In this document: one piece after another, positions 2,529 through 27,319 of the stretch
Position numbering within the stretch: position 1 is the stretch's first letter
Layout of the letters: every line of letters starts with the position of its first letter
NCBI GenBank assembly: GCA_001790095.1
Contig: MGBH01000001.1
Location: 1,140,001 to 1,172,000 of the forward strand
Length of the DNA: 32,000 nt
Direction: 5' to 3'
From: Candidatus Saccharimonadota bacterium
GTDB lineage: Bacteria; Patescibacteriota; Microgenomatia; UBA1406; GWC2-37-13
Notes under the pieces: model-generated
What the model saw: only the letters and a program-made list of their open reading frames with translations
Database searches by the model: none
What the model was told of the DNA's origin: nothing
Translations under genes and position numbers: made by a program

Positions 2529-4427
2529 TTATTTATGCTCCCATCTCCATATACCATCCCATAGCCGATTCTGATCCTTTTGAAGCTCAACTATTCTTTT
2601 TTGCATTATGTAGACCACAGGATCGTTGATTAATCTATCCCAAGTCTGTAGAGCTTTGGTAAATTTACCTTGCTGGTACAGGGTAAAACCTTTTTCATAC
2701 TCATTTTTTAGTATCTGATTTTCTCGAGTACAGAGCAGTGGTTGATATAACTTAACAGCCTGGTTTTTACCCTTCACGACGACCTCATCGATCAATCGAT
2801 ACATAATTGTTGGATCTTTGACTTTATTTTTTACTGCCTCCGTAATCAATATGTTTACTCCATATTTTTTTGTTAACCCCTCAACCCGAGAAGCTAGGTT
2901 TACATTATCTCCAAGTACGGTATAATCAAAACGCTTGCTTCCTCCAATATTCCCTACGATCATTTCACCACTATTAATACCTATTCCAATCTGCCAATCA
3001 GTATGCAGTTTGTGTAATGCTTCAAGCATTTTGAGAGCTGTTTTTACCGCCTTTAACTCATGTTGTTTTTCAAAAAGCGGTGCATTCCAGAAAGCCATAA
3101 TTGCATCCCCTATGAACTTATCAATAGTTCCTTGTTCATCTAAAATAAGGCTGGACATTAATTCAAGGTATTGATTGAGTGACTCAACGAGTTTTTCAGG
3201 TGGGACTTTTTCCGAGTAACTAGTAAATGATCTAATATCACAAAATAAAACCGTCATCTGTCTTTTTTCTCCTCCAAGGGCTAGTTTTTCAGGATGTTTG
3301 AGAAGGGTGGGTAATAATTTAGGACTAATATATTGTTGAAAAGCTTGTTTTAAAAACTGTCTTTCCTTACTCTGTTTGAGATTGTCAAAAACCAAAATAT
3401 AGAAAATTATCCCTAACCAAATAAATGAAAACTGCACAAAAAACCAATTAATTCCAAATTCAAAAAGCATGACTCCAACGATTTGTGTAAAAAGCCATAT
3501 AAGACCAACGGTTAGAAAACGAAAGCTTAGTTTTTTTTGAGATAGAATAAAGAATGCGAGTGTAATGACGGAAATAAAAAGGCAAATAATATAAAAATAT
3601 ATTTGTGGAATATCTCTTTGAAAACGGTTATGTAAGAGTGAATTGATAATCTGTGCATGTATCTTTATACCAGGAGTTTGTGCGCCAAAGATATCAGTGA
3701 AATTATCATCGATCTGACTTTTTAAATCTTTTGTGGTAAAGCCGACAAGAACTATTTTGTTACGAAAAGAATCTTTCGGAAATTGGCGGTTATATACATC
3801 AATAAAACTGATATGACTAAAAGCTTGACGTGTGTAATTATAATACAGAGGAGTTGATTCGTTTATACATCCTGCCAGTTTCTTACCAAGATACTGTTCA
3901 AAAACTGACGAAGCAAAACTCGTCACACAAGTGTTGGAAATATTTAACTTGTTTTGAAACTGACGGATTTTGCCGTCTGATTGACTGTTCAAATTGATAA
4001 ATCCTGAGGTGATCAAATTTGATGTATATACGGGCTGAAGAAATGTTTCATTATCAATTTTTCCAGCCAGAGTTAATGGATAATTATTTTTGGATAACTG
4101 ATACATAACTTCTTCATCTTCTTCTCTTTTATCCAAAAATAAGACGTCTATTCCTACGATCCTTGGTTTTTCAGGGTTCAGGTTAGCTAATACTTGTGCA
4201 AATACTTGTCTTGACCATGGCCAAGGACCAATCTGCTGTAGGCTTTTTTCATCGATCTCAACTATCATAATTTCTTTACGGGGAGTTAAAAATCCTTGAA
4301 GTTGATCTGTAAAAATAGTGTTTAACTGCGAAAAAAAATCAAAAGAGGCAATTTTTATTAAAAAAAACAAAAACATGATACCAAGGAAGATAAAAGTAGT
4401 TTTACTAAATAGTCGTTTATATATCAT
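2529..4427 (-). CDS. CHASE2 sensor domain / class III adenylate (guanylate) cyclase
   Basis: N-terminal CHASE2 signature IVEIDEKSLQQIGPWPWSR...IVGIDVLF, then a TM cluster, then the cyclase catalytic motifs FCDIRSFTSYSE, GDAIMAFWNAP and DYTVLGDNVNLASRVE. Confidence 0.85.
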   Translation of the reverse strand: MIYKRLFSKTTFIFLGIMFLFFLIKIASFDFFSQLNTIFTDQLQGFLTPRKEIMIVEIDEKSLQQIGPWPWSRQVFAQVLANLNPEKPRIVGIDVLFLDKREEDEEVMYQLSKNNYPLTLAGKIDNETFLQPVYTSNLITSGFINLNSQSDGKIRQFQNKLNISNTCVTSFASSVFEQYLGKKLAGCINESTPLYYNYTRQAFSHISFIDVYNRQFPKDSFRNKIVLVGFTTKDLKSQIDDNFTDIFGAQTPGIKIHAQIINSLLHNRFQRDIPQIYFYIICLFISVITLAFFILSQKKLSFRFLTVGLIWLFTQIVGVMLFEFGINWFFVQFSFIWLGIIFYILVFDNLKQSKERQFLKQAFQQYISPKLLPTLLKHPEKLALGGEKRQMTVLFCDIRSFTSYSEKVPPEKLVESLNQYLELMSSLILDEQGTIDKFIGDAIMAFWNAPLFEKQHELKAVKTALKMLEALHKLHTDWQIGIGINSGEMIVGNIGGSKRFDYTVLGDNVNLASRVEGLTKKYGVNILITEAVKNKVKDPTIMYRLIDEVVVKGKNQAVKLYQPLLCTRENQILKNEYEKGFTLYQQGKFTKALQTWDRLINDPVVYIMQKRIVELQKDQNRLWDGIWRWEHK

Positions 4428-5386
4428 CTAAGTCTGATAAAAGTTGGAGTAGGCGACAAGATCAATTTTCTTAAAGGGAAAAGAGGCAACTGCAAGAGAG
4501 AAATTGAGGGTTTTGGGGAAGGAGTAGGAGTAGGGGCAATAGTAATAGTAGATGAAATAGGAGTGGTTTTGATAATGTTTTGAAATATGATGGTTGTGAT
4601 GGTTGGAGTAATTATGGTAGGCGCAATCGTGACGGTTGGTGAGGGTATTTTTCTTTTACGCAGTATATCTAATCGGAACTTAGTTTTTAACTGAGAGTCC
4701 AATGTTCGATTTGTTTTGAACCATACAGAATTCATTATCTCTGAGGAAATATTTTCTGTTGTTAATCCTTTCTGAGAACCTGGAGGAGGAGGGGAGGCGA
4801 ATTTTCCATCTAAGCCTGACTGTTTTCTTAAAGGTATGCGTGCGATCTTTCCTTGAGTTAATAATTGTTTACTGATATATATCCGTTTTTTATTTTCTTC
4901 CTTATAATTTTTTACTTCTATGGTATTTTCAATTGCCAGCACCTTGGTTTCAGCAAGAGCGCCCCTACTTATTTCAACCGCAAACGTGGTTCCACGTACC
5001 GCTGCAACAGTATTTGGTGTTTCAACCTGGTAAGCTTTTCCTTTAGTTATATGTTCAATTCGATGCCACGTATTACCGAGAAGCTGAGTTATATATGTCG
5101 AATTATCTTGTATCTCTACCTGAAGCTCTGTGTTTTTATCTAAGGAGACAAGTGAGTTGTCAGGTAATATTAGATGTGCTTGGCCTTCAAGAGTTTTTAC
5201 ATGACTTTTATTCGGCAAGGACATTTCATCAGTAGTTACTTTTTGGTAGTCACCGGGTAGCTGTTTATAAAATACATCTCCATTTTCCCTTATAAGAAGA
5301 AAGGTGAGGGGTTTTTTACTTACTAATTTTGAAAATAAGAAAATTATCCCAACAAAAAACAGGAATAAGATTAGATATTTTCGCAT
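4424..5386 (-). CDS. FecR-domain protein with Pro/Thr-rich C-terminal tail
   Basis: N-terminal anchor and a FecR-like beta segment (VAAVRGTTFAVEI). Its stop overlaps the cyclase start (ATGA at 4424-4427), suggesting translational coupling. Confidence 0.6.
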   Translation of the reverse strand: MRKYLILFLFFVGIIFLFSKLVSKKPLTFLLIRENGDVFYKQLPGDYQKVTTDEMSLPNKSHVKTLEGQAHLILPDNSLVSLDKNTELQVEIQDNSTYITQLLGNTWHRIEHITKGKAYQVETPNTVAAVRGTTFAVEISRGALAETKVLAIENTIEVKNYKEENKKRIYISKQLLTQGKIARIPLRKQSGLDGKFASPPPPGSQKGLTTENISSEIMNSVWFKTNRTLDSQLKTKFRLDILRKRKIPSPTVTIAPTIITPTITTIIFQNIIKTTPISSTITIAPTPTPSPKPSISLLQLPLFPLRKLILSPTPTFIRLR

Positions 5387-5454
5387 GTAGCATATTATAG
5401 CATTTTGATGATGTGGCTTATTTCTTGAATAAGAGAAACACTAAGAATATTTAT

Positions 5455-5483
5455 TTGACTAATTTTTTAATATAAAATATAAT
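5455..5483 (+). promoter_or_regulatory. sigma70-like promoter for glnA (TTGACT-17 nt-TATAAT)
   Basis: TTGACT at 5455-5460, a 17-nt spacer, and TATAAT at 5478-5483, 37 nt upstream of the ATG at 5521. Confidence 0.4.
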
Positions 5484-5520
5484 TACTTTATATTATAAAA
5501 ATTTATTTTTAAATTAAAAT

Positions 5521-6963
5521 ATGAGCATACAAGGTGATAACCTACGAAATTTTCTTGAGATACCTTACGATGAGTTAGAGCAAATGAACCTTGAGGCAAA
5601 AAAGGAGCGAGAGTCAAGAGAACATGAACTCAAAGTAAAGGAGAGATATATCAATTATTTAAAAAAGGAGAAGCGAATTAAGGCGGTGACTGTAGGTTTT
5701 TCAGATCTTGAGGGTAGATTCCATATGCTGGATTACGATAAAAAGTTTTTTTTATCAAACTTTGAGAACCTTACCTTTGATGGTTCATCTATCCGCGGAT
5801 TTTCAAGACAGGCAGAGTCAGATTTGCGTCTTAAGATTGATTGGTTTGCTTTCTGGTGGCTGCCAAGTGATGTATTTGGTCCGGGCAAAGTTCTCATCAT
5901 GGGTGAAGTATTTAACCAAGATGAAAAACCATACGAAATGGATACAAGAGGACTTCTCAAAAAGTATGCTGCAACTTTAAAAAAAGAGAAGGGTTATGTT
6001 TTTTATGCCGCAAGCGAAGTAGAGGGATTTTTACTAAAGGGGGAAGATGCAGAGAAAAACTTCGATGAACGTATTGGTTTTGAGATTGCATCTAAGGGTG
6101 GATATTATCACTCTCTACCTAATGACATGCTTCGTGTCTTTATAGATCGAACAGCTGAGGCTCAGAGAGCTATGGGATTTGAAAACGAAAAAGATCATCC
6201 TGAAGTCGCTCCCTCGCAGTTTGAACTCAACTATTCATATTCTGAGATAGTTAATGCGGCAGATCAGATACAAATCTACAAATTAGTGGCGCGGCAAATC
6301 GCACGGAATATGGGTATGACGGCAACGTTTCTGCCAAAACCTATCGTAGGTGTGAATGGAAGCGGTATGCATACTAATCTTTCAGTCATGAAAGATGGTA
6401 AGAATCTGTTTTATGACAAAAAGGGTAGAGGCAAGCTTTCATCGTTTGCATGGGATGTAGTAAATAGGATTTTAGGCAGTGCGGGTGATATTTGTCTTAT
6501 ATTAAACAGCAGTGTAAACGCTTATAGAAGACTTGATCCTCACTTTGAGGCGCCAAATGAGATAAAGGTATCTGAGGTAGATCGTGGAGCTATGATTCGA
6601 GTACCTCTTTTCAACGAGCGATCTTCTCGTATCGAGATACGAAGTATTGGTCCTGACGCAAATCCATATCTCATGATGTATGCTTTGATTAAAGTTGGTT
6701 TGGAGGGGGATATACAAAAAGCAAGAAAGGACAAGCGACAAAGAGTAAAGTTTCTGCCAGGTCATATCCATACCGCTCTACAATTATTTCGTCAAAGCGA
6801 CGTTGTCACGAAACTTTTGGGAGAGGAGTTTAAGAAGAAATTTGTGAGTTTAAAGTTAACGGCAGCAGATCGAAGTCCGACAGAGCTTGGGATAAGAGTT
6901 AAAAATGGTGAGGTGCTATATCATCATGAAGTATATAATCAGATGCTTTGGAATAATTTCTAA
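5521..6963 (+). CDS. glnA: glutamine synthetase (type I-like)
   Basis: FDGSSIRGF (beta-grasp signature), GSGMHTNLS (ATP-binding motif), NAYRRL, and RIEIRSIGPDANPYL. Confidence 0.9.
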   Translation: MSIQGDNLRNFLEIPYDELEQMNLEAKKERESREHELKVKERYINYLKKEKRIKAVTVGFSDLEGRFHMLDYDKKFFLSNFENLTFDGSSIRGFSRQAESDLRLKIDWFAFWWLPSDVFGPGKVLIMGEVFNQDEKPYEMDTRGLLKKYAATLKKEKGYVFYAASEVEGFLLKGEDAEKNFDERIGFEIASKGGYYHSLPNDMLRVFIDRTAEAQRAMGFENEKDHPEVAPSQFELNYSYSEIVNAADQIQIYKLVARQIARNMGMTATFLPKPIVGVNGSGMHTNLSVMKDGKNLFYDKKGRGKLSSFAWDVVNRILGSAGDICLILNSSVNAYRRLDPHFEAPNEIKVSEVDRGAMIRVPLFNERSSRIEIRSIGPDANPYLMMYALIKVGLEGDIQKARKDKRQRVKFLPGHIHTALQLFRQSDVVTKLLGEEFKKKFVSLKLTAADRSPTELGIRVKNGEVLYHHEVYNQMLWNNF

Positions 6964-6989: not shown

Positions 6990-7328
6990 ATGTTTAATGA
7001 GTATGATCTAAAAATCAAAAAATTATTATCTGCAAAGACCCCAGATACTGATTGGAAACGGGTATTGGATGATCATAAAGAAATGATTGGTATTATTCAG
7101 CACGAGAGACTTATCCATTTGTTAGTAACTATGTTTGTTGGAAGTATTATGTCAGCCTCTTCTTTCATCATCATAATGACGAAAAAACCAGACCTACTGA
7201 TTTTCTGTATACCGCTGATATTTCTTTTTTTAGGCTATTTATTTCATTACCGATTTTTAGAAAACACCACACAACGCTGGTATAGGATTAAAGAACAAAT
7301 TAAAAAAAATAGTAGCGAGGATAAGTAA
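6990..7328 (+). CDS. hypothetical small membrane protein
   Basis: 112 aa with two predicted TM segments. TGT-TAATAT (6975-6983) lies 6 nt upstream of the ATG. Confidence 0.4.
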   Translation: MFNEYDLKIKKLLSAKTPDTDWKRVLDDHKEMIGIIQHERLIHLLVTMFVGSIMSASSFIIIMTKKPDLLIFCIPLIFLFLGYLFHYRFLENTTQRWYRIKEQIKKNSSEDK

Positions 7329-7337
7329 TTTTCGGAC

Positions 7338-7547
7338 TTATTTCCGTTTCCACCAGTCTCCAAATACATCTCTCAAATCAAGCCCAAAATAAGCAAGTGA
7401 AGATAACAATAAAAAAGATGCAGTTGCCTCATCCATATTTCCTATGAACGGAACTGTATCAGGTATAAACTCAAATATTCCAAATCCCGGATTAAATAAA
7501 TATAATCCAGACACTATCCCAATGAATGCAATCAATGATTTTTTCAC
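7338..7547 (-). CDS. DUF1232 (YkvA-like) small membrane protein
   Basis: 69 aa. FIPDTVPFIGNMDEA resembles the DUF1232 core (IPD-IP-IG-DD). Confidence 0.5.
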   Translation of the reverse strand: MKKSLIAFIGIVSGLYLFNPGFGIFEFIPDTVPFIGNMDEATASFLLLSSLAYFGLDLRDVFGDWWKRK

Positions 7548-7658
7548 AAGCGTCTGTTTGCACCAGTTAGTAATATTTTCATAGTGAGTTATAATAATGG
7601 TTATTATATCAGGAAGTTTAACATCCTTCTTTTTTGCGTCAAGGAAACAAATGAAGAT

Positions 7659-8009
7659 CTACTGTGTCAGTAATTGAAAATAGTAAATTAAAAAAAGAAT
7701 CACGGCAAAAGGAGAACTGACAAGACCAGGTATGTATCTCTTAGCTAAAATAGCTCCAGTAATATGCCATATGCCATTAGCAAACATAACGAGGTTAAAT
7801 ATTGACATTAAACCGATTCTGTAAGGATAATTTGTTATAAAAATAGCTGAGATCAATAAGGTGGAAAGAAGAATTTCCATTGTAATAAAAAACCTTCTCG
7901 ACATTTTCCAGAGAGGCCATACTTTTTCAAAGTGAGTATAAATCTCTTCTTGCGAATGAAACAAATAGATAATGACAAAGTAAGTATAGTATCTTTCAAC
8001 CAATCCCAT
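7659..8009 (-). CDS. HXXEE-domain membrane protein
   Basis: 116 aa, hydrophobic, with an N-terminal HSQEE motif (HXXEE family pattern). Tentative. Confidence 0.4.
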   Translation of the reverse strand: MGLVERYYTYFVIIYLFHSQEEIYTHFEKVWPLWKMSRRFFITMEILLSTLLISAIFITNYPYRIGLMSIFNLVMFANGIWHITGAILAKRYIPGLVSSPFAVILFLIYYFQLLTQ

Positions 8010-8140
8010 AGCTTAAGTATATCAAGACAAAAAATTCTAATTTGTTTTAGGAGTTGTCTCTTTTGTTCTATCGATTACATTCGATGAGTTAATTCTAATT
8101 TTCTATTGATCATTAACGATAGATTTTTTAACCCCAGAAA

Positions 8141-8581
8141 TTATTTAGCCTTTTTAACCAGTCTTGCGTGAGTGTTTATATGTCCTGCAATCATTTCCAA
8201 AAAGTAGGCAGTCTCATAAGTGCGACCACCTTTACTGTAAGTCATTCGGGGAACTTTCTTCACAACGATGTTAGTATATAATGACATATTAGCCTCTCGC
8301 AATCTGCCTACAAGCTCCCTAATGGAGCATTTTCTTAGGGATAAAACTCCTGCTATGTTTATGGTGGACATTCCTTCAGGTAGGGGAGGATTTTTATATT
8401 CCGCTAGAGCTTTATAGTTGGCAGCATAATTTTCGTGCCAAAAAACGATATGGCAAAGTTGGTCTTTGACAGTCCACTCATCAGTCGTCATTAAACCAGA
8501 TTTTTTATTTTTTATTTCATGAATAAATTCCTCAACACTCTTGGAGAGAGTAGTAAACAACTCATTATAATTATTGTTCAT
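8141..8581 (-). CDS. DinB/ClbS-like four-helix-bundle protein
   Basis: 146 aa. WTVKDQLCHIVFWHENYAANY and a C-terminal GHINTH are typical of the DinB superfamily histidine pattern. Confidence 0.5.
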   Translation of the reverse strand: MNNNYNELFTTLSKSVEEFIHEIKNKKSGLMTTDEWTVKDQLCHIVFWHENYAANYKALAEYKNPPLPEGMSTINIAGVLSLRKCSIRELVGRLREANMSLYTNIVVKKVPRMTYSKGGRTYETAYFLEMIAGHINTHARLVKKAK

Positions 8582-9924: not shown

Positions 9925-12900
9925 TTGGCTTGTACGAAAAAAACATCAATTATTACTAGCTTTCTTATTCTTCTTGTCACGCTCTCCTTTTTTTCCTCAA
10001 AATCAGTTCAAGCTGCCCAAACTCCTGATGTTTGTTACTCTCAGTGTCTTGCCTACAAATTTGTTTGGCAGGGTACACATTGTTTTGATGAGTTTGAATA
10101 TCATTGCACAGAAGATAGTGGTAGCACATTTAAAAAAACAATTGCGTTTCTTAAAGATGTTTTTAATACTTTAAAAAGCGGTGACGGTATTGACACCGTC
10201 TTTACTGCTTGGTTTGTCTGCAAGCCATTAATTGAAAACTGTATTGTTCCCCATCAACAGAATTGTCGGCAAACCTGCAATCTTGATCAGTATGTCTATG
10301 CGCCTGACCTGTCAGTCGGCCACCCGGACAGCAGTTTTCATGGTGTATATTTCGATGAAAGATTCAATCGACTTTATTTTAAGCTCGTCAATAACGGTAT
10401 GGGTTATGCATGGGATATTGATGTTGATGCAAGCTCAGGTCATACGCCTAACCGTGATGGAAAAATCCAAGGAGGAACCCAGCTTTTCAAGGAAAAGGTC
10501 GAGCATTTAATTTATTTGGGAGCCAGAAACGGTCCACCCAAGTCTTTTTCCGACACGGTGGGCGACTTTCTGATTGAGGAATCATTAAACGGTCAATATC
10601 TCCATGATTTTAAGAGCTGGTTGGTTGACAAAGCCGATCTGCATTCCGATTCGAAAAACTACAACGTCCCCAACTATTGGATAAAAGCTGTTCCTTTCAA
10701 TCCTGTCCCGGGCGAACTTAACCGGGTTATTTTCAACGTTGACGGTAGCAAACTCATTCCTGAATATAGTGAAAGTAATAATACATTTATTTTTGACCTT
10801 GATCTACGACCAACCCCGGCGCGATATACTATCGCAACATTTACCCAACAAATTATTGATCAAACTTTAAACTCCTTTTTGATAAATTTCCAGGTAAAAA
10901 ATACCGGTGAGGAAAGCGGCCTGGCACAAGCAAAAATATATGAAGGGAAATTTCAGGAGGGAAAAACACCTATTTACCAATCGGAAGAAAATATTATGGG
11001 TAAGAGTGATAAAAATTTCGAAGCGACCATTGATGTTAATTTGTCCGGAGAGTCCAGTCCCTATTGTGGCAAACACAAGGAATATACGATCGTCGTTACC
11101 GATGAAGAGGGAAATAAGACAGAAAGAAGTTTTTCCCTGCCGATCTATATCGGGTCGGTTAATGGAAACGTTGAGGATCTTTTTGGAAAACCGGTCGTCG
11201 GGGCGACTGTCAAGGCTTCAACCGGACAGGAAACAACTACTAATAAATACGGTTCCTACTCTTTAAAGGGAATTGCGTCATTGGGAAAGATTGTTATTAC
11301 CGCCACCCACTCCGAATTTTCCAGACCAGGAACACAAGAAGTGGAGCTTAAATACGTAAACGAATTTGATGCCTGCGATGTAGGTAATTTAAATTTTTAT
11401 AATATCGATCTTGTCCTCAAGGACCAGGACGTCCTTTTTACAGTAACTGTTAAAGATCAATCAGGAAATCCAATAATAGCTAACATATTAGCAGTAAATT
11501 CGGATTGGCGCTTTTATGAAACGATTAATGGAACCGGTCCATTACCCGGTATGCAGCCGGGGAAATATTTATTTACTATTTCTGCCTCTGGTTATAAAAC
11601 AATCCGGCAGGATATCAATGCCGTACCGCAAAATGTTAACTTGGAATTTATCCTGGAAAAATTGAATGGTCGCCCTGATGACACCGGCCTTCATTTAATT
11701 ACGCCACGTCTTTTATGGCAAAAAACTTTTGGCTTAGGAAGTGGTAAGGAAATTGGTAATATGACCGGAACAAAAAACGGCCAGCTTTTAGTAATAAGTG
11801 TTGCTGATAATCACAATAAAACCAGAAAATTGTTTTTTCTTGACCTTTTGACAGGGAATCAAACCAGGGAAGTATCGGTTCCCTGGTCGGTTGAGGAACA
11901 ACGTTACATCGGACTTGACGCTTCTTACGACGGTGGGACAGTCGGATTTTTTATCAATACCGGTTCGGGTAAAACCAGAGAGTCGATTTTGAAATTATTT
12001 GATGCTACCGGTAATGAAATCGGCTCAACCACATTTGATAGAGACTTATCAGCATCAATGGACGTTTCACCTGATGGTTTCTATGTCTGTTCCTATCTGT
12101 TATTAGATAAAGGCCTCCATAAATACACCGGATATGAGATTGAAGGCAAAGGTGATGATGATTTTAAAAGAAATCCAGCAACCTGTCCTGACTATTTTTT
12201 AAGAAACAATCATCGAGTAACAAACTGTAAAGACGGCTTGTGTGAAGAAACTATTTCTCACAATCAAGTGAGAGTTATCGGTGATATTACCAATATTACA
12301 ACGGTGACAAAATATGACTCGACCTTTGATGACAGTACAGTCGTCGCCCGTACCCATAAAACACTTTATTATTTCGGCCAGTCGAATTGGAGCAAGGAAT
12401 TAAGAAGTGATAATTCCTATAAGAGCATTGCTGTCAGTCCGGGTGGAATGTATACAATTGTCACGGAAGGTAGTGGTGGCTCATTAAAACTCAAAGTTTT
12501 CGACAGAACTGGCGGTGATAAAACGCCGGATTTCCCCTATAAACACGTCAGGTTCGTTTTCGCCAACGACAAGGGTTTGTTTTTTACCCAATTGGTTTCA
12601 AATCGAATCGAACTTTATAAAATCGGTGAATATGACAACGAATATCGACCGCCCGATCTAACTCCAACTGTTATTCCTCAATGGTTTGACGGGCTTTCAT
12701 ATTACTCACAAGGGCAATTTTTCCCATCGCGCGATAATACTTTTGCCAGCCTTGATCCCGGAGTGATGTATCGGGCGGACAAAAATATCCAAATGTCCAT
12801 AATTAAACCATTTTCCAGCGTTAATCTTGGTACTTTATCAATAACCAAAGACACAATATTTTCTGTTAATTACAACTATAATCCAATTCTTATTAAAGGT

Positions 12901-18837: not shown

Positions 18838-18921
18838 ATACCTATTGATAATAAAATTAGTATATCAAGAAATATAAAAGTTCAAACATCTTAGGTGGGT
18901 AATGTTTTTTGTATCTAGTGC

Positions 18922-19040
18922 TGGAGAGCAAGGATTCCCTTCGTCGATTTATATCATTTCATTACTCCTCAGGGTAAACTTCTCATCCTCGCTCAAAATA
19001 GTTCGTCAATCTCACCTTGCGGTGAGCTTGTCGAACTATG
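18922..19040 (-). repeat. 119-bp direct repeat unit U, copy A
   Basis: Identical at all 119 positions to 20850-20968. Minus-strand sense: a GNRA-capped hairpin (ATAGTTCG/CTCACC-GCAA-GGTGAG/CGAACTAT, 18994-19039) plus TTTT, then TGATATAAAT, then GAATCCTTGCTCTCCA, which mimics the tRNA-Gln 3' end. Confidence 0.9.
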
Positions 19041-19069
19041 TTGGCTCTGGTTGACTATGTAGGAACTTA

Positions 19070-20005
19070 TTACACCACGTTTTGTGGTTTACCGATATTG
19101 AATGCTTCAATGTTTTCAACTACTAAGTTATAAGTTTTTGCGTCAGCATCCTCGGTATTAAATGCATTGTGGGGGACGACGATTATGTTGGGATACTTAT
19201 AGTATTCATCATTTTGATCAATTACTTGCATTATCGGAGTTTCAACTCCATAACCAAATATTTTCCCAGACTTAATACCTTCCAACAACGCCATTTTATT
19301 AACAATTTTCTCTCTAGCACAGTTTACAATTATCACTCCATGTTTTACTAATTCAATTTCCTCGCTACTTATATAGTTCTCTGTTTTCGAATTTAATGGG
19401 ATGCAAATAGTGATTACATCAGATTCTTTTAAAAGAGTTATTTTATCTACTAATTCCACACCAAGCATCGGTTTTTGAGATTTGTTTATACCTAATATCC
19501 GCATATTAAAACATTTGGCAATTCTAACCACTTGTGAGCCAATGCTTCCTAACCCGAGGACTCCTAATGTTTTCCCATAGATTTCCTTTCCTTTGTATAA
19601 AGAAAAGTTGTAAGCACTATTTAACCGGGCTTCCCGGTCGAATTCATTGACTCTCTTTGCAAGATTTAAAATCATAGCCCAGGTATGCTCCGCAACAGAT
19701 TCTGCAGTTGCCCCGTGTATGTTACTAACAACAATACCTTTTTCTCGGCAATAATCTAAATCAAGCCAATCTGTTCCAATAGTTAACACCGACAGTAACT
19801 TAAGAGAAGGTAATTTCAACAATAATTCTCTTCTCAAAATTGTAACTTCGGGACCTGTTATTAAAACTTCAGCATCAGCTACTTTTTCAATAACCTCTTT
19901 TGGGGATAGGTTCTGAACGTGATAAATTGTTAGATTATGAGAATTATGTAAAGGTTTTAAATATGCGTCAATTGCTGGATCTGATGCTAAGCAAACGATG
20001 TTCAT
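19070..20005 (-). CDS. D-isomer-specific 2-hydroxyacid dehydrogenase (NAD-binding)
   Basis: 311 aa with the Rossmann motif GVLGLGSIGSQV and a catalytic Arg/Glu/His pattern (NCAREK, GVETP, VPHNAFNT). Confidence 0.85.
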   Translation of the reverse strand: MNIVCLASDPAIDAYLKPLHNSHNLTIYHVQNLSPKEVIEKVADAEVLITGPEVTILRRELLLKLPSLKLLSVLTIGTDWLDLDYCREKGIVVSNIHGATAESVAEHTWAMILNLAKRVNEFDREARLNSAYNFSLYKGKEIYGKTLGVLGLGSIGSQVVRIAKCFNMRILGINKSQKPMLGVELVDKITLLKESDVITICIPLNSKTENYISSEEIELVKHGVIIVNCAREKIVNKMALLEGIKSGKIFGYGVETPIMQVIDQNDEYYKYPNIIVVPHNAFNTEDADAKTYNLVVENIEAFNIGKPQNVV

Positions 20006-20084
20006 AAATATATTCTACCAAGTTGTTCCGTCGTCCACTCATAGTAGTGAAGTTATATGGTCGTTGTCTTGAGGAAAAAACTAG

Positions 20085-20116
20085 GTTGAGCATATCGGTC
20101 GGGACCCATTCGGTCC
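20085..20116 (+). repeat. intergenic motif copy c (GTTGAGCATATCGGTCGGGACCCATTCGGTCC)
   Basis: Shares GTTGAGCAT-N3-GGTC-N2-GAC with copies a and b, and adds a GGACC-CATTC-GGTCC hairpin. Confidence 0.5.
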
Positions 20117-20833
20117 TTATAGTTTCTTATTTGATTCTTGAGCTTTAAGATACTTAACAAATTTGTCAACAACTCTCCAGGTTTTCATCATAATATCAAC
20201 GCGTTTTTCTCCGACTACAGGTCCATATACGCCATGTCGTTGATCGCCCCCCGTTTCCTTAATTTCATTTATGTCAGATTGGTTAAGATTTAAAATCTTT
20301 ATAGCTTCTTGCCACCCCCTTGCTTTATTATTAGATTTAGTGAAAAACTTAGCTATTGTTTCAGTTGCACGTCTACAATGAAAAAATGTATCAAGAGGTC
20401 GTCCAATTGCATCTCTGAGGTCTTTCAGTACCATAGAAAGTTCTGGGATTATCAAAGCGAGCAAAAGAGTATCTTGGTAGCTTAATGGTCTATTTTTTTC
20501 GTCCTGGGTAATTTTAACTACATCCATTCCGAAAACTTCATGATATCCTGTTTCAGGAATATAAACTGATGCAATTTCTACATTGTATGTGTATCCTTTG
20601 AGATATCCATAAACATCCATAAAAGTATGAACGTTTTTTTCTATCGTATTTTTAAGATCCACGAGAGGGATTTGGGAATCAGTATCCACTTCAACAGTGA
20701 TTTGAGAAAGTAATATCGATGTTTTTATATTAGCCTCAAAAGAGGCATCGTCACTCTTAACGCGCCCATTTACAGAAGAAATTGTGATTGGAGCTCTTTC
20801 AGGATAGACTTTTCCAAAGAAAATATATTTCAT
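20117..20833 (-). CDS. hypothetical protein, C-terminal half possibly DUF4145/HEPN-like
   Basis: 238 aa with no TM. FFHCRRATETIAKFF followed about 40 aa later by IKETGGDQRHG resembles the RRxxE ... GN-x2-H pattern of DUF4145-type HEPN-like domains. By-eye inference only. Confidence 0.45.
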   Translation of the reverse strand: MKYIFFGKVYPERAPITISSVNGRVKSDDASFEANIKTSILLSQITVEVDTDSQIPLVDLKNTIEKNVHTFMDVYGYLKGYTYNVEIASVYIPETGYHEVFGMDVVKITQDEKNRPLSYQDTLLLALIIPELSMVLKDLRDAIGRPLDTFFHCRRATETIAKFFTKSNNKARGWQEAIKILNLNQSDINEIKETGGDQRHGVYGPVVGEKRVDIMMKTWRVVDKFVKYLKAQESNKKL

Positions 20834-20849
20834 ATCTGGTTCTTGTTGT

Positions 20850-20968
20850 TGGAGAGCAAGGATTCCCTTCGTCGATTTATATCATTTCATTACTCCTCAG
20901 GGTAAACTTCTCATCCTCGCTCAAAATAGTTCGTCAATCTCACCTTGCGGTGAGCTTGTCGAACTATG
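20850..20968 (-). repeat. 119-bp direct repeat unit U, copy B (immediately 3' of tRNA-Gln)
   Basis: Identical to 18922-19040. It starts 1 nt after the tRNA discriminator base. The hairpin 20926-20967 plus T-run probably terminates the tRNA transcript. Confidence 0.9.
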
Positions 20969-21041
20969 CTGGGGAGCAAGGATTCGAACCTTGAATCGCG
21001 CTGATCCAAAGTCAGGCGTGTTACCGTTACACTACTCCCCA
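20969..21041 (-). tRNA. tRNA-Gln (anticodon UUG), CCA not encoded
   Basis: Hand-folded cloverleaf. Acceptor TGGGGAG/CTCCCCA, D arm GTGT-AACGGTA-ACAC, anticodon loop CTTTGGA (one C-C mismatch at the base of the stem), T arm CAAGG-TTCGAAT-CCTTG, discriminator G. The 5' UGGGG and 3' CCCCAG ends match those of E. coli tRNA-Gln. Confidence 0.85.
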
Positions 21042-21269
21042 TGATTTTAAAAGTTCTCTTCCTTTACCACTTTTCAAAAATTGTTCGTATTTTAATGCTT
21101 CGCTTTTAATTTCGAATTCCTTAGTATAAACCACCTTCCAATTCTTTCCTTTTCTGGTTGATCGGGTAATTTTATTATTATGTTCCCAAATTCTCCTTTC
21201 AAGGTCTGAGGTATAACCAGTATATGTGTTTTTTAATTCATCTTTCAGAACATATACAGTGTATGCCAT
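21027..21269 (-). CDS. GIY-YIG nuclease-domain protein (short, UPF0213-like)
   Basis: MAYTVYVLKDE...TYTGYTSDLERRIWEHN...E (GIY / YIG / R / E pattern). The track start is TTG 21281; the ATG at 21269 is preferred. The last five codons, TGG GGA GTA GTG TAA, are the first 15 nt of the tRNA-Gln. Confidence 0.8.
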   Translation of the reverse strand: MAYTVYVLKDELKNTYTGYTSDLERRIWEHNNKITRSTRKGKNWKVVYTKEFEIKSEALKYEQFLKSGKGRELLKSWGVV

Positions 21270-21293
21270 TCTTGTTTTCAATATTTAAAGATA

Positions 21294-21336
21294 CTGATCC
21301 AAAGTCAGGCGCCCGCCTGAGGCGGGCTACTCCCCA
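21294..21336 (-). pseudogene. 5' fragment of a second tRNA-Gln (acceptor 5' strand, D arm, anticodon arm); no T arm or 3' acceptor
   Basis: TGGGGAGTAG (10 nt) and CGCCTGACTTTGGATCAG (18 nt) are identical to the intact tRNA. The D arm is replaced by the GC-rich GCCC-GCCTCAGGC-GGGC, which can also form a 7-bp hairpin GCCCGCC-TCA-GGCGGGC. Confidence 0.6.
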
Positions 21337-21353
21337 AGTGTTTTGCAAGCTCT

Positions 21354-21362
21354 ATTTTACCA
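21354..21362 (-). promoter_or_regulatory. candidate extended -10 promoter (TGG-TAAAAT) upstream of the tRNA fragment / GIY-YIG / tRNA-Gln unit
   Basis: The minus strand reads TGGTAAAAT ending 17 nt before the TGGGGAG of the 5' tRNA fragment. No good -35 element was seen. Confidence 0.3.
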
Positions 21363-21553
21363 AAAAAACATGCCTTATGGGTTTACGATTCTCTAGTACG
21401 ATTGAAGTTCAATTTGCTTAATGGTAAAGATGATGATATACTACTTAATAGAAGAATTTCAGTCACTTAATGGGTCTAGGTTTGGAGATTAGGGTAAAAC
21501 AACTTCATTTAAGGATACTTGGTTTTCTTCATGAAAGGAGGTGAAAACATACA

Positions 21554-21874
21554 ATGGACAAAAAGAAATTATACGTCGGAAATCTACCTTGGTCAATTGA
21601 GGATGCTGGACTTAAAGATTTATTCGCACAATACGGAGAAGTCGTTGAGGCAGTTGTCATCAAAGATCGTTATTCAGGTAGATCAAAAGGTTTCGGATTC
21701 GTAACTTTTGCAACTGAAGAAGCTGCAGCACAAGCTGAAGCAGAAATGGCTGGAAAAGATATGGAAGGCCGCAAAATCGTCGTTAACGTCGCAAAACCTA
21801 GAGAGGAAAGGCCTCGAGGAGGTGGCGGAGGTTATCGAGGAGGAGGAGATAGGGACAATAGACGACCTTACTAA
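21554..21874 (+). CDS. RRM-type RNA-binding protein with RGG-rich tail
   Basis: RNP-2 LYVGNL and RNP-1 KGFGFVTF, a C-terminal RPRGGGGGYRGGGDR tail, and a strong SD AAAGGAGGTGA. Confidence 0.9.
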   Translation: MDKKKLYVGNLPWSIEDAGLKDLFAQYGEVVEAVVIKDRYSGRSKGFGFVTFATEEAAAQAEAEMAGKDMEGRKIVVNVAKPREERPRGGGGGYRGGGDRDNRRPY

Positions 21875-27199: not shown

Positions 27200-27319
27200 G
27201 CCCCGGCTACGACCTACTTTCCCTCTGCGAAAACGCAGAAGTATCATAAGCGCTAACTCGTTTCACGACCTTGTTCGGGATGGGAAAGGGTGGTGCCAAG
27301 TCGCTTCAATAACCAGGAC
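27200..27319 (-). rRNA. rrf: 5S ribosomal RNA
   Basis: The minus strand reads GTCCTGGTTATTGAAGCGAC...CCCATCCCGAACAAGGTCGTGAAACG...GGGAAAGTAGGTCGTAGCCGGGGC. The conserved CCGAAC/GTGAAACG and AGTAGGTCG blocks are present. Helix I forms between GTCCTGGT and GCCGGGGC. A T8 run follows the 3' end. Confidence 0.85.

Follow-up and report, generated by a model that had tools for sequence, protein, structure and literature searches.

A small GIY-YIG nuclease gene and a GC palindrome nested in a duplicated tRNA-Gln gene: a candidate tRNA-gene-targeting cassette

The stretch of DNA considered here (the window) comprises 32,000 nucleotides (nt) of contig MGBH01000001.1 from a Candidatus Saccharimonadota bacterium (assembly GCA_001790095.1, positions 1,140,001-1,172,000). 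All coordinates are window positions unless a related locus, designated by an L number, is named. On its minus strand, a small open reading frame (ORF) for a single-domain GIY-YIG protein is enclosed by two copies of the same tRNA gene, one partial and one intact. Reading this strand, a promoter-like motif is followed by a 43-nt copy of part of tRNA-Gln, a 24-nt spacer, the GIY-YIG ORF and tRNA-Gln(UUG), and these features are as follows:

21354 to 21368, minus strand: promoter-like T-run and extended -10 motif (TTTTTTTGGTAAAAT), conserved in empty and occupied alleles; presumed function
21336 to 21294, minus strand: 43-nt tRNA-derived 5' fragment corresponding to tRNA-Gln positions 1-10 and 26-43, by sequence identity
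21327 to 21336, minus strand: copy of tRNA-Gln positions 1-10 (TGGGGAGTAG), an exact 10-mer match to 21032-21041
21311 to 21327, minus strand: GC palindrome GCCCGCC-TCA-GGCGGGC, a perfect 7-bp stem with a 3-nt loop
21294 to 21310, minus strand: second anticodon arm of tRNA-Gln (positions 26-43), an exact 17-18 nt repeat of 21001-21018
21270 to 21293, minus strand: spacer of 24 nt, poorly conserved in an alignment of seven occupied loci
21027 to 21269, minus strand: ORF for a single-domain GIY-YIG nuclease of 80 amino acids (Pfam PF01541)
20969 to 21041 (lower end at 20968 or 20969), minus strand: intact tRNA-Gln(UUG), from ARAGORN and Rfam RF00005 (61 bits, E=2e-12)

In the 5' fragment, the palindrome stands where the tRNA has its D arm (positions 11-25). 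The fragment and the intact tRNA have an exact 18-mer in common (CGCCTGACTTTGGATCAG), and a 17-mer would be expected by chance 0.01 times in the window. The ORF begins with an ATG at 21269, the start used by all homologs, and ends with a TAA at 21029-21027; its 3' end (TGG GGA GTA GTG TAA) is also tRNA positions 1-15, such that the last four codons and the stop are inside the tRNA. The GIY-YIG gene is the only ORF in the insert of about 300 bp, in which no integrase or recombinase was found. An earlier note, made from the sequence alone, had placed the fragment, spacer, ORF and tRNA in this order and at these positions, and all of this is borne out by ARAGORN, Rfam, Pfam and the exact 10-mer and 18-mer matches. 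Its candidate extended -10 promoter fared less evenly: the core motif TGGTAAAAT, preceded by a T-run (21368-21354, minus strand), is conserved in empty and occupied alleles, but a sigma-70 consensus scan does not call it as a promoter, and a terminator scan called none. Likewise, the intact tRNA is recognised by the Rfam tRNA covariance model, but the fragment receives no score even at E<=10 in a permissive scan of 20500-21700. Its tRNA origin is therefore shown by other means, namely sequence identity, covariation with the adjacent tRNA in seven related loci, and comparison with empty sites. The same scan recognised no intron or other RNA family, the non-tRNA matches at E<=10 being far below gathering scores. 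The DNA fold centroid of the leader retains only the palindrome hairpin, and the folding energy of the leader is ordinary (z=-1.0).

The encoded protein matches Pfam PF01541 over residues 3-69 (E=2e-14; 53.9 bits, with a cut-off of 22.6). Residues Y6, Y16, G18, R26 and E62 are invariant across 22 homologs, with the tyrosines of the GIY and YIG motifs and the catalytic Arg and Glu all present. A profile comparison with the PDB returned the UPF0213 structures 1zg2 (BH0048, E=6e-20) and 1ywl (EF2693, E=2e-17), and then SLX1 (1e-5). In NCBIfam, PADLOC and PHROGs, no family matches the protein. A hypothetical protein from Candidatus Roizmanbacteria RIFOXYB2_FULL_38_10 has the identical sequence. 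Among six occupied orthologs, dN/dS is 0.03-0.18 with dS at about 1-3 (saturated), and the ORF is thus under purifying selection.

The layout is shared by homolog contigs whose proteins are 74-88% identical to that of the window (L001, L002/L003, L004, L095, L096 and L102). When the seven occupied loci are aligned, position 9 of the fragment (A or G) is the base of the adjacent tRNA in all seven, and the 28/42 pair (T..A or A..T) covaries with the neighbouring tRNA. The earlier note had suggested that two different tRNA-Gln alleles were joined at this locus. This is excluded, because the variant bases of the fragment are those of its own adjacent tRNA in every lineage. In these loci the stem of the palindrome is conserved and its loop is variable (TCA, GC, TAGG, TG), and the fragment and palindrome are much better preserved than neutral evolution would predict, whether by constraint, by gene conversion with the tRNA or by the two together.

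Metagenome contigs were also scanned with a 37-nt core of the window tRNA, yielding 34 loci, four with an upstream ORF and fragment and about 27 with neither. The promoter motif stands directly before tRNA-Gln in the empty alleles L122, L093, L112, L099 and L101, and TTTTTTTGGTAAAAT stands before the 5' fragment in the occupied alleles of the window, L001, L004, L095 and L096. The same site is found empty (L122, L093, L112), occupied (L096, L004/L102 and the window) and with a remnant (L094, L098, L100), and the promoter motif is common to all nine loci of this comparison. Upstream DNA is about 85-90% identical among L096, L122, L094, L098 and L100. In L122 and L096, this identity covers upstream coding DNA and is followed by an identical promoter-like string (...TTTTTTTGGTAAAATAGACAGTGCCT), after which L122 continues directly with the tRNA and L096 with TGGGGAGTAG, the palindrome, the anticodon-arm copy, the ORF and the tRNA. 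In L094, L098 and L100, the promoter is followed by TGGGGAGT, by about 52 nt ending in the last codons of the ORF, and by the tRNA; these are internally deleted cassettes. A similar 60-nt AT-rich leader is found in the empty loci L097, L124 and L125 and in the occupied L001. The comparison of empty and occupied alleles thus shows that the cassette separates the tRNA from the promoter of the tRNA gene, which suggests co-transcription. A conserved layout with no empty sites, which the earlier note had named as evidence against its reading, is not what is seen, as empty sites exist in relatives. As with Seg-like free-standing homing endonucleases, the GIY-YIG gene is present or absent at one fixed site among related genomes.

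Beyond the orthologs, a profile scan with one genome per species identified 379 relatives, of which the best 80 (38-81% identity) were examined, giving 79 independent species-level loci. As these are the loci closest to the query, the figures describe that clade rather than all small GIY-YIG proteins. The hosts include Bacteroidota, Ignavibacteriota, Chlorobiota, many lineages of the candidate phyla radiation (CPR), Gammaproteobacteria, Planctomycetia, Omnitrophota and others. A tRNA on the same strand is found within 150 nt of the ORF in 65 of the 79 loci, with 16 isotypes represented. In 31 loci this tRNA precedes the ORF, in 32 it follows it, and in two the ORF has a tRNA on either side. 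Only one case of an opposite-strand tRNA occurs among the 79, and six of the 14 loci with no adjacent tRNA are truncated by the end of a contig. For 50 of the 95 tRNAs in these loci, a partial copy scores above the 99th percentile of a mismatched-tRNA control, and it is located across the ORF from the intact tRNA. One intact tRNA is thereby preserved by the duplication. The general idea of the earlier note, an inserted GIY-YIG element tied to tRNA-Gln with an intact tRNA beside a displaced 5' copy, is supported by the empty, occupied and remnant alleles and by the 16 isotypes; the element and its target stand, and the joining of alleles does not.

Within 130 nt of the ORF ends, the density of perfect GC palindromes is 4.02 per kb, compared with 0.18 per kb elsewhere (about 22-fold), and 50 of the 79 loci have them. 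The segment that had been read as a compensatory alternative D arm is an example of this hallmark. Several classes are observed (TCCGCC-nnn-GGCGGA, CCCGCC..GGCGGG, GTCGCC-TnA-GGCGAC, CCTGCCTGCCGGCAGGCAGG and CCTGCGGCACGCAGG), and they are always in the partial copy and never in the intact tRNA. Some are clean insertions, at junctions 11/12, 21/22, 22/23 and 46/47 of the tRNA, and others replace an arm, from position 25 to 43 (the anticodon arm), 38 to 57, 38 to 49, or, in the window, 10 to 26 (the D arm).

In two further loci, L075 (1400-1500 and 1800-1865) and L078 (1440-1500 and 1810-1870), the two halves of one pseudo-tRNA-Ile flank the ORF together with the intact tRNA-Ile. This pseudo-tRNA and the intact tRNA have different acceptor stems (GGGTCGG/CCGACCC in the former). 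In place of an anticodon arm the pseudo-tRNA has GTCGCC-TnA-GGCGAC, and this palindrome falls within a direct repeat of about 40 nt. Between the two genomes, the pseudo-tRNA is better conserved than the intact tRNAs.

The end of the ORF is likewise tied to the tRNA. Where the tRNA is downstream, the stop lies from -40 to +8 nt of tRNA position 1 at 34 of 34 junctions. A stop inside the tRNA, already pointed out for the window in the earlier note, is a family trait, seen at 24 of these 34 upstream-type junctions. At 11 it is an in-frame TAG from the nearly universal U8-A9-G10 of the tRNA (e.g., L047 1734, L051 1731 and L075 1725), and at another six it is a TAG at tRNA positions 21-23. Where the tRNA is upstream, the ORF continues into the D arm of the downstream pseudo-tRNA.

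Tandem arrays are also found, with four copies in L083 (1090-2351, with a 316-nt period, before tRNA-Arg) and two copies each in L037, L056, L076 and L110. Those of L110 (12842-13700) are two identical units after tRNA-Gln. In L022 (1384-2322), three tRNA-Phe genes alternate with one full and two decayed ORFs.

Relationships among the proteins follow the tRNA more than the host. In 48 of 84 cases, a protein and its nearest neighbour from another genome are at tRNAs of one isotype (permutation mean 9.3, maximum 21 in 2000 trials); only 36 of the 84 pairs share a broad taxon. Protein pairs from CPR bacteria and Gammaproteobacteria are 57-72% identical at tRNA-Asn, tRNA-Ile and tRNA-Gln(CUG). Taken together, the tRNA adjacency, partial copies, palindromes, arrays and isotype tracking fit a site-specific selfish element and not a conserved operon.

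Among described systems, Ssn proteins with their NTS repeats are the closest, followed by UPF0213/Slx1-like proteins and then phage SegB. Ssn proteins are small single-domain GIY-YIG proteins that bind the NTS/SRM hairpin repeat in single-stranded DNA (ssDNA) and cut just upstream of it (PMC11893778). Their genes are typically flanked by this repeat, and a resemblance to insertion sequences has been noted (Chenal et al., 2025, PMC11893778). In Neisseria meningitidis, transformation near NTS repeats is limited by SsnA (CAX49033.1; CDD cd10448), and a protein is assigned to the Ssn family by a blastp match to SsnA with E<1e-10 at 75% coverage (PMC11893778) or by cd10448 as its top CDD hit. The likeness lies in the small single domain (<150 amino acids in Ssn proteins, 80 in the window protein), in the cognate GC-rich hairpin repeat flanking the gene, and in the existence of ORF-less repeat copies in both. 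With an Azospirillum lipoferum gene in the arrangement NTS-ssnA-NTS, with four NTS copies, as a proxy for SsnA, the window protein is 33% identical over 67 amino acids (E=4e-7), and the family profile matches with an hhalign probability of 97.8% (E=8e-13). A CPR member of the downstream type is closer to it (37% identity, E=4e-12). These alignments make the window protein a homolog of an Ssn-type protein flanked by the NTS, and a possible member of the Ssn clade. The Azospirillum gene (L129, A. lipoferum 4B plasmid AZO_p3) has paired inverted NTS copies on each side (1080-1160 and 1500-1590) and lies within an Fe-S cluster operon, inserted between sufB and sufC.

The differences from Ssn concern the repeat and its setting. 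The palindromes seen here (GCCCGCC..GGCGGGC, TCCGCC..GGCGGA, CCTGCCTGCCGGCAGGCAGG, GTCGCC..GGCGAC) are outside the SRM pattern and embedded in partial tRNA copies, and the gene abuts or overlaps a tRNA, of which the Ssn paper makes no mention (PMC11893778). With a relaxed motif search, the canonical NTS was found only in L106, L117 and L121, with an interrupted form in L002 and an SRM-like hairpin in L001. The canonical, Neisseria-type copies (CGTCATTCCCGCGAAGGCGGGAATCCAG) are on CPR groundwater contigs, all on the minus strand (L106 944-971, L117 9019-9041 and L121 3394-3416), one of them 25 nt upstream of an empty tRNA-Gln. The interrupted NTS of L002 (about 3835-3895) is upstream of the 5' fragment, and the SRM-like hairpin of L001 is at 3793-3815. 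When family members were compared by tblastn with a collection of plasmids in which two N. gonorrhoeae chromosomes are included, Neisseria was not among the matches listed. In cassettes at tRNA-Asp(GUC), the anticodon-loop sequence CTGTCA leads directly into the palindrome (TGTCATCCCGAG..CTCGGGACGGGTT), as at L040 1759-1778 and L029 946-966, 1789-1813 and 2048-2066. This layout resembles the GTCAT-hairpin of Ssn and hints that such repeats may be derived from pseudo-tRNAs.

UPF0213/Slx1-like proteins (1zg2, 1ywl, Bacillus subtilis YazA and Escherichia coli YhbQ) have the same minimal domain and are the best relatives with solved structures. They belong to a minimal Slx1-like GIY-YIG lineage without the C-terminal Asn of the UvrC/I-TevI lineage (Dunin-Horkawicz et al., PMC1564403). 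Unlike them, the window protein is without the G-x-G-A-K-Y-T-R signature, and a hairpin or tRNA-gene context is undescribed for them in the sources used. SegB is a GIY-YIG homing endonuclease of the phage T4 tRNA cluster that is reported to show preferential inheritance and segmental amplification of the tRNA region (PMC2330249; see also PMC13096335). In both cases a nuclease gene lies among tRNA genes and is present or absent between relatives, with amplification in phage T4 and tandem ORF-tRNA arrays here. SegB belongs to the multi-domain lineage of homing endonucleases and is encoded between tRNA genes, whereas the cassette has a bare 80-amino-acid domain inside a duplicated tRNA gene, carries a palindrome, is bacterial-chromosomal and is almost absent from phages. 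Integrase-borne tRNA islands also insert into a tRNA gene and leave an intact tRNA with a displaced partial direct repeat; the cassette differs in having no integrase, in its size of about 300 bp, and in a displaced copy that is the 5' part and contains a palindrome. Small GIY-YIG genes nested in duplicated tRNA genes, or these palindromes, were not found described in the literature searched, which leaves out most subscription journals, and an earlier description is possible.

On balance, we consider it probable that the locus is a selfish, tRNA-gene-targeting cassette, made up of a GC palindrome and a minimal GIY-YIG nuclease and expressed from the tRNA promoter. The comparisons above show an insertion polymorphism at a fixed site, a palindrome confined to the partial tRNA copy, selection on the ORF, co-orientation with the tRNA and isotype tracking, and from them we infer nuclease activity, a substrate, co-transcription and a mechanism of mobility. 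In this reading, the cassette was inserted into the tRNA-Gln(UUG) gene downstream of its promoter, duplicating the 5' part of the tRNA to leave a dead promoter-proximal copy, with the palindrome for a D arm, and a functional distal copy. Without a promoter of its own, the nuclease gene would presumably be transcribed from that of the tRNA as a fragment-ORF-tRNA precursor. By analogy with Ssn and the NTS, the target of the putative nuclease is probably its cognate palindrome, the cloverleaf loops that a tRNA gene would form as single-stranded DNA, or both; the palindromes are located at loop or arm boundaries. Repair of the break by copying or recombination from an occupied allele or a neighbouring repeat could then spread or maintain the cassette, resulting in homing into empty alleles, tandem amplification, and gene conversion that homogenises the fragment and the tRNA. 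As the stop codon is inside the tRNA, RNase P cleavage would give a non-stop message, which may limit nuclease levels. A Campbell-type single crossover was rejected as the sole mechanism, as the palindrome would not be in the correct copy unless the crossover fell within the first 10 nt.

Several observations weigh against a mobile, selfish cassette. The 80-amino-acid protein has no second or DNA-binding domain in Pfam or in the homolog alignment, whereas classical homing endonucleases have one. The locus with the same protein is identical in 24 contigs, with no polymorphism at the population level, and the saturated dS reflects an old divergence in the lineage, such that the cassette here may have long been immobile or domesticated. 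An intact tRNA target persists beside the nuclease gene and would have to escape self-cleavage. The published SRM pattern (HGTCWY..RNCYNB) has no match at the cassettes or in 302 kb of related loci, and its sole match in the window is at an unrelated site (10541-10569). The family is almost absent from plasmid and phage collections, and a Rhizobium phage homolog is not adjacent to a tRNA. Finally, the taxon labels of metagenome-assembled genomes may be unreliable for an argument across phyla.

Some of these points would be accommodated by a domesticated host module that is no longer mobile and that, for example, restricts recombination or integration of incoming ssDNA at tRNA hotspots, in the manner of SsnA. 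The strong purifying selection across saturated synonymous divergence and the identity of the locus in 24 contigs are in keeping with this, as are the Ssn precedent, the integration hotspot on the 3' side of tRNA-Gln (a serine recombinase in L001, transposases in L002) and the canonical NTS copies at or near CPR tRNA-Gln loci (L106, L117, L121; interrupted in L002). However, close relatives without the cassette or with decayed remnants, tandem arrays and copies at many tRNAs, and ORF-less derivatives are all typical of selfish elements, and domestication appears unlikely as the explanation, although the two readings are not mutually exclusive.

A role at the RNA level seems quite improbable. 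Here the fragment and hairpin would be a tRNA mimic that directs processing by RNase P/Z or E, or that stabilises or throttles the nuclease mRNA, and the duplication would have been selected for expression control. In its favour, the hairpin replaces a whole arm and keeps the neighbouring ones, giving a cloverleaf-like outline (the D arm here; the anticodon arm in L047, L064, L075 and L078), the fragment and stem are conserved and the spacer is not, and the many stops inside the tRNA would yield non-stop messages upon RNase P cleavage. However, the fragment is without a T arm and 3' acceptor strand and is unrecognised by the tRNA covariance model, the folding energy of the leader is unexceptional, and lineages differ widely in where the hairpin stands and where the fragment ends; the insertion polymorphism and isotype tracking would be left unexplained. 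Very improbable, finally, is a passive relic, in which an old partial tRNA-Gln duplication or an integrase-made att repeat flanks an unrelated small ORF by chance. Direct repeats of tRNA parts are a classic integrase footprint, and recombinases and transposases do lie downstream of the tRNA in relatives, but the cassette neither contains nor adjoins an integrase, and what was duplicated, upstream of the tRNA, is its 5' portion. Neutrality would predict far less conservation of the fragment, and a chance association is already contradicted by the 65 of 79 genomes in which the ORF family recurs with the palindrome and a partial tRNA.

On the other side of the tRNA, the window contains material that seems to belong to a second cassette of the downstream type:

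20847 to 20972, minus strand: ORF-less unit A, a 126-nt direct repeat, 98% identical to 18919-19044; fold z-score -5.3
18919 to 19044, minus strand: ORF-less unit B, the second copy of unit A, a 126-nt repeat likewise ending in a copy of the tRNA 3' end
19070 to 20833, minus strand: two genes between units A and B, for a DUF8168-like protein (238 amino acids) and a 2-hydroxyacid dehydrogenase (311 amino acids)

Unit A starts at the 3' end of the tRNA and contains a terminator-like hairpin (20967-20926) and a copy of the tRNA 3' end (GAATCCTTGCTCTCCA, 20865-20850). It aligns with the flanks of the downstream-type GIY-YIG unit of L110, which is at the same tRNA, once the ORF of that unit is removed, and it retains ...GGATGA, the end of an L110-type ORF. 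It also aligns with the equivalent unit of L122, in which the terminal tRNA copy has L122's own T-stem variant. These alignments suggest that units A and B are what is left of a second GIY-YIG cassette, of the downstream type, after loss of its ORF, and with the upstream cassette the tRNA-Gln of the window would be flanked on both sides by GIY-YIG-cassette material.

The DUF8168-like and dehydrogenase genes are context or cargo, outside the nuclease cassette. The 238-amino-acid protein is unrelated to the product of the gene in the same position in L004, and the DNA downstream of the tRNA thus differs between relatives. In L001, a large serine recombinase gene (4194-5891, minus strand) ends inside or just after tRNA-Gln, and in L002, transposases of the Mutator and rve types follow the tRNA (4338-5273 and 7301-8239). 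The 3' side of tRNA-Gln is a general integration hotspot in these relatives. Elsewhere in the window, an RRM-domain protein with a Gly/Arg-rich tail is encoded divergently from the cassette (21554-21874, plus strand), at a position where L002 has the same gene and L001 and L004 have acetyltransferase genes. A 5S rRNA gene is present at 27201-27317 on the minus strand (Rfam, 73 bits), and other rRNA genes were not detected in the window.

The locus is a hairpin-associated minimal GIY-YIG nuclease, a known kind, and what sets it apart is how systematically it is nested in tRNA genes. Bacteria very commonly encode small stand-alone GIY-YIG proteins, most of them uncharacterised, and the Ssn branch was shown to be a hairpin-guided ssDNA nuclease only in 2025 (PMC11893778). 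The present comparison links a large branch neighbouring Ssn to one niche, that of duplicated tRNA genes, co-oriented with the nuclease gene and with a palindrome substituting for a tRNA arm. This link yields testable predictions on substrate, strand and cut position, explains many of the "partial tRNA genes" in bacterial annotations, and extends to cultivable carriers among the hosts (Chryseobacterium koreense CCUG 49689, Zunongwangia atlantica 22II14-10F7, which has four tandem copies, and Joostella atrarenae). Should these nucleases prove to recognise tRNA-gene DNA that is single-stranded and structured, they would add to the programmable ssDNA cutters available as tools.

A broader proposal, offered tentatively and with more doubt than belief, is that these cassettes are unrecognised, phylum-spanning parasites of tRNA genes. 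In this proposal, a minimal GIY-YIG nuclease and its cognate palindrome would attack highly transcribed tRNA genes whose DNA is single-stranded and folded as a cloverleaf, leave a palindrome-marked pseudo-tRNA beside an intact copy, ride the tRNA promoter, and cross phyla while remaining faithful to one isotype. Should this be true, the Ssn target repeat (GTC..hairpin..ATC) could be a reduced pseudo-tRNA, consisting of an anticodon-loop side, a hairpin and a T-loop side, and much of the function-unknown UPF0213/COG2827/Ssn-like protein world would be selfish in origin.

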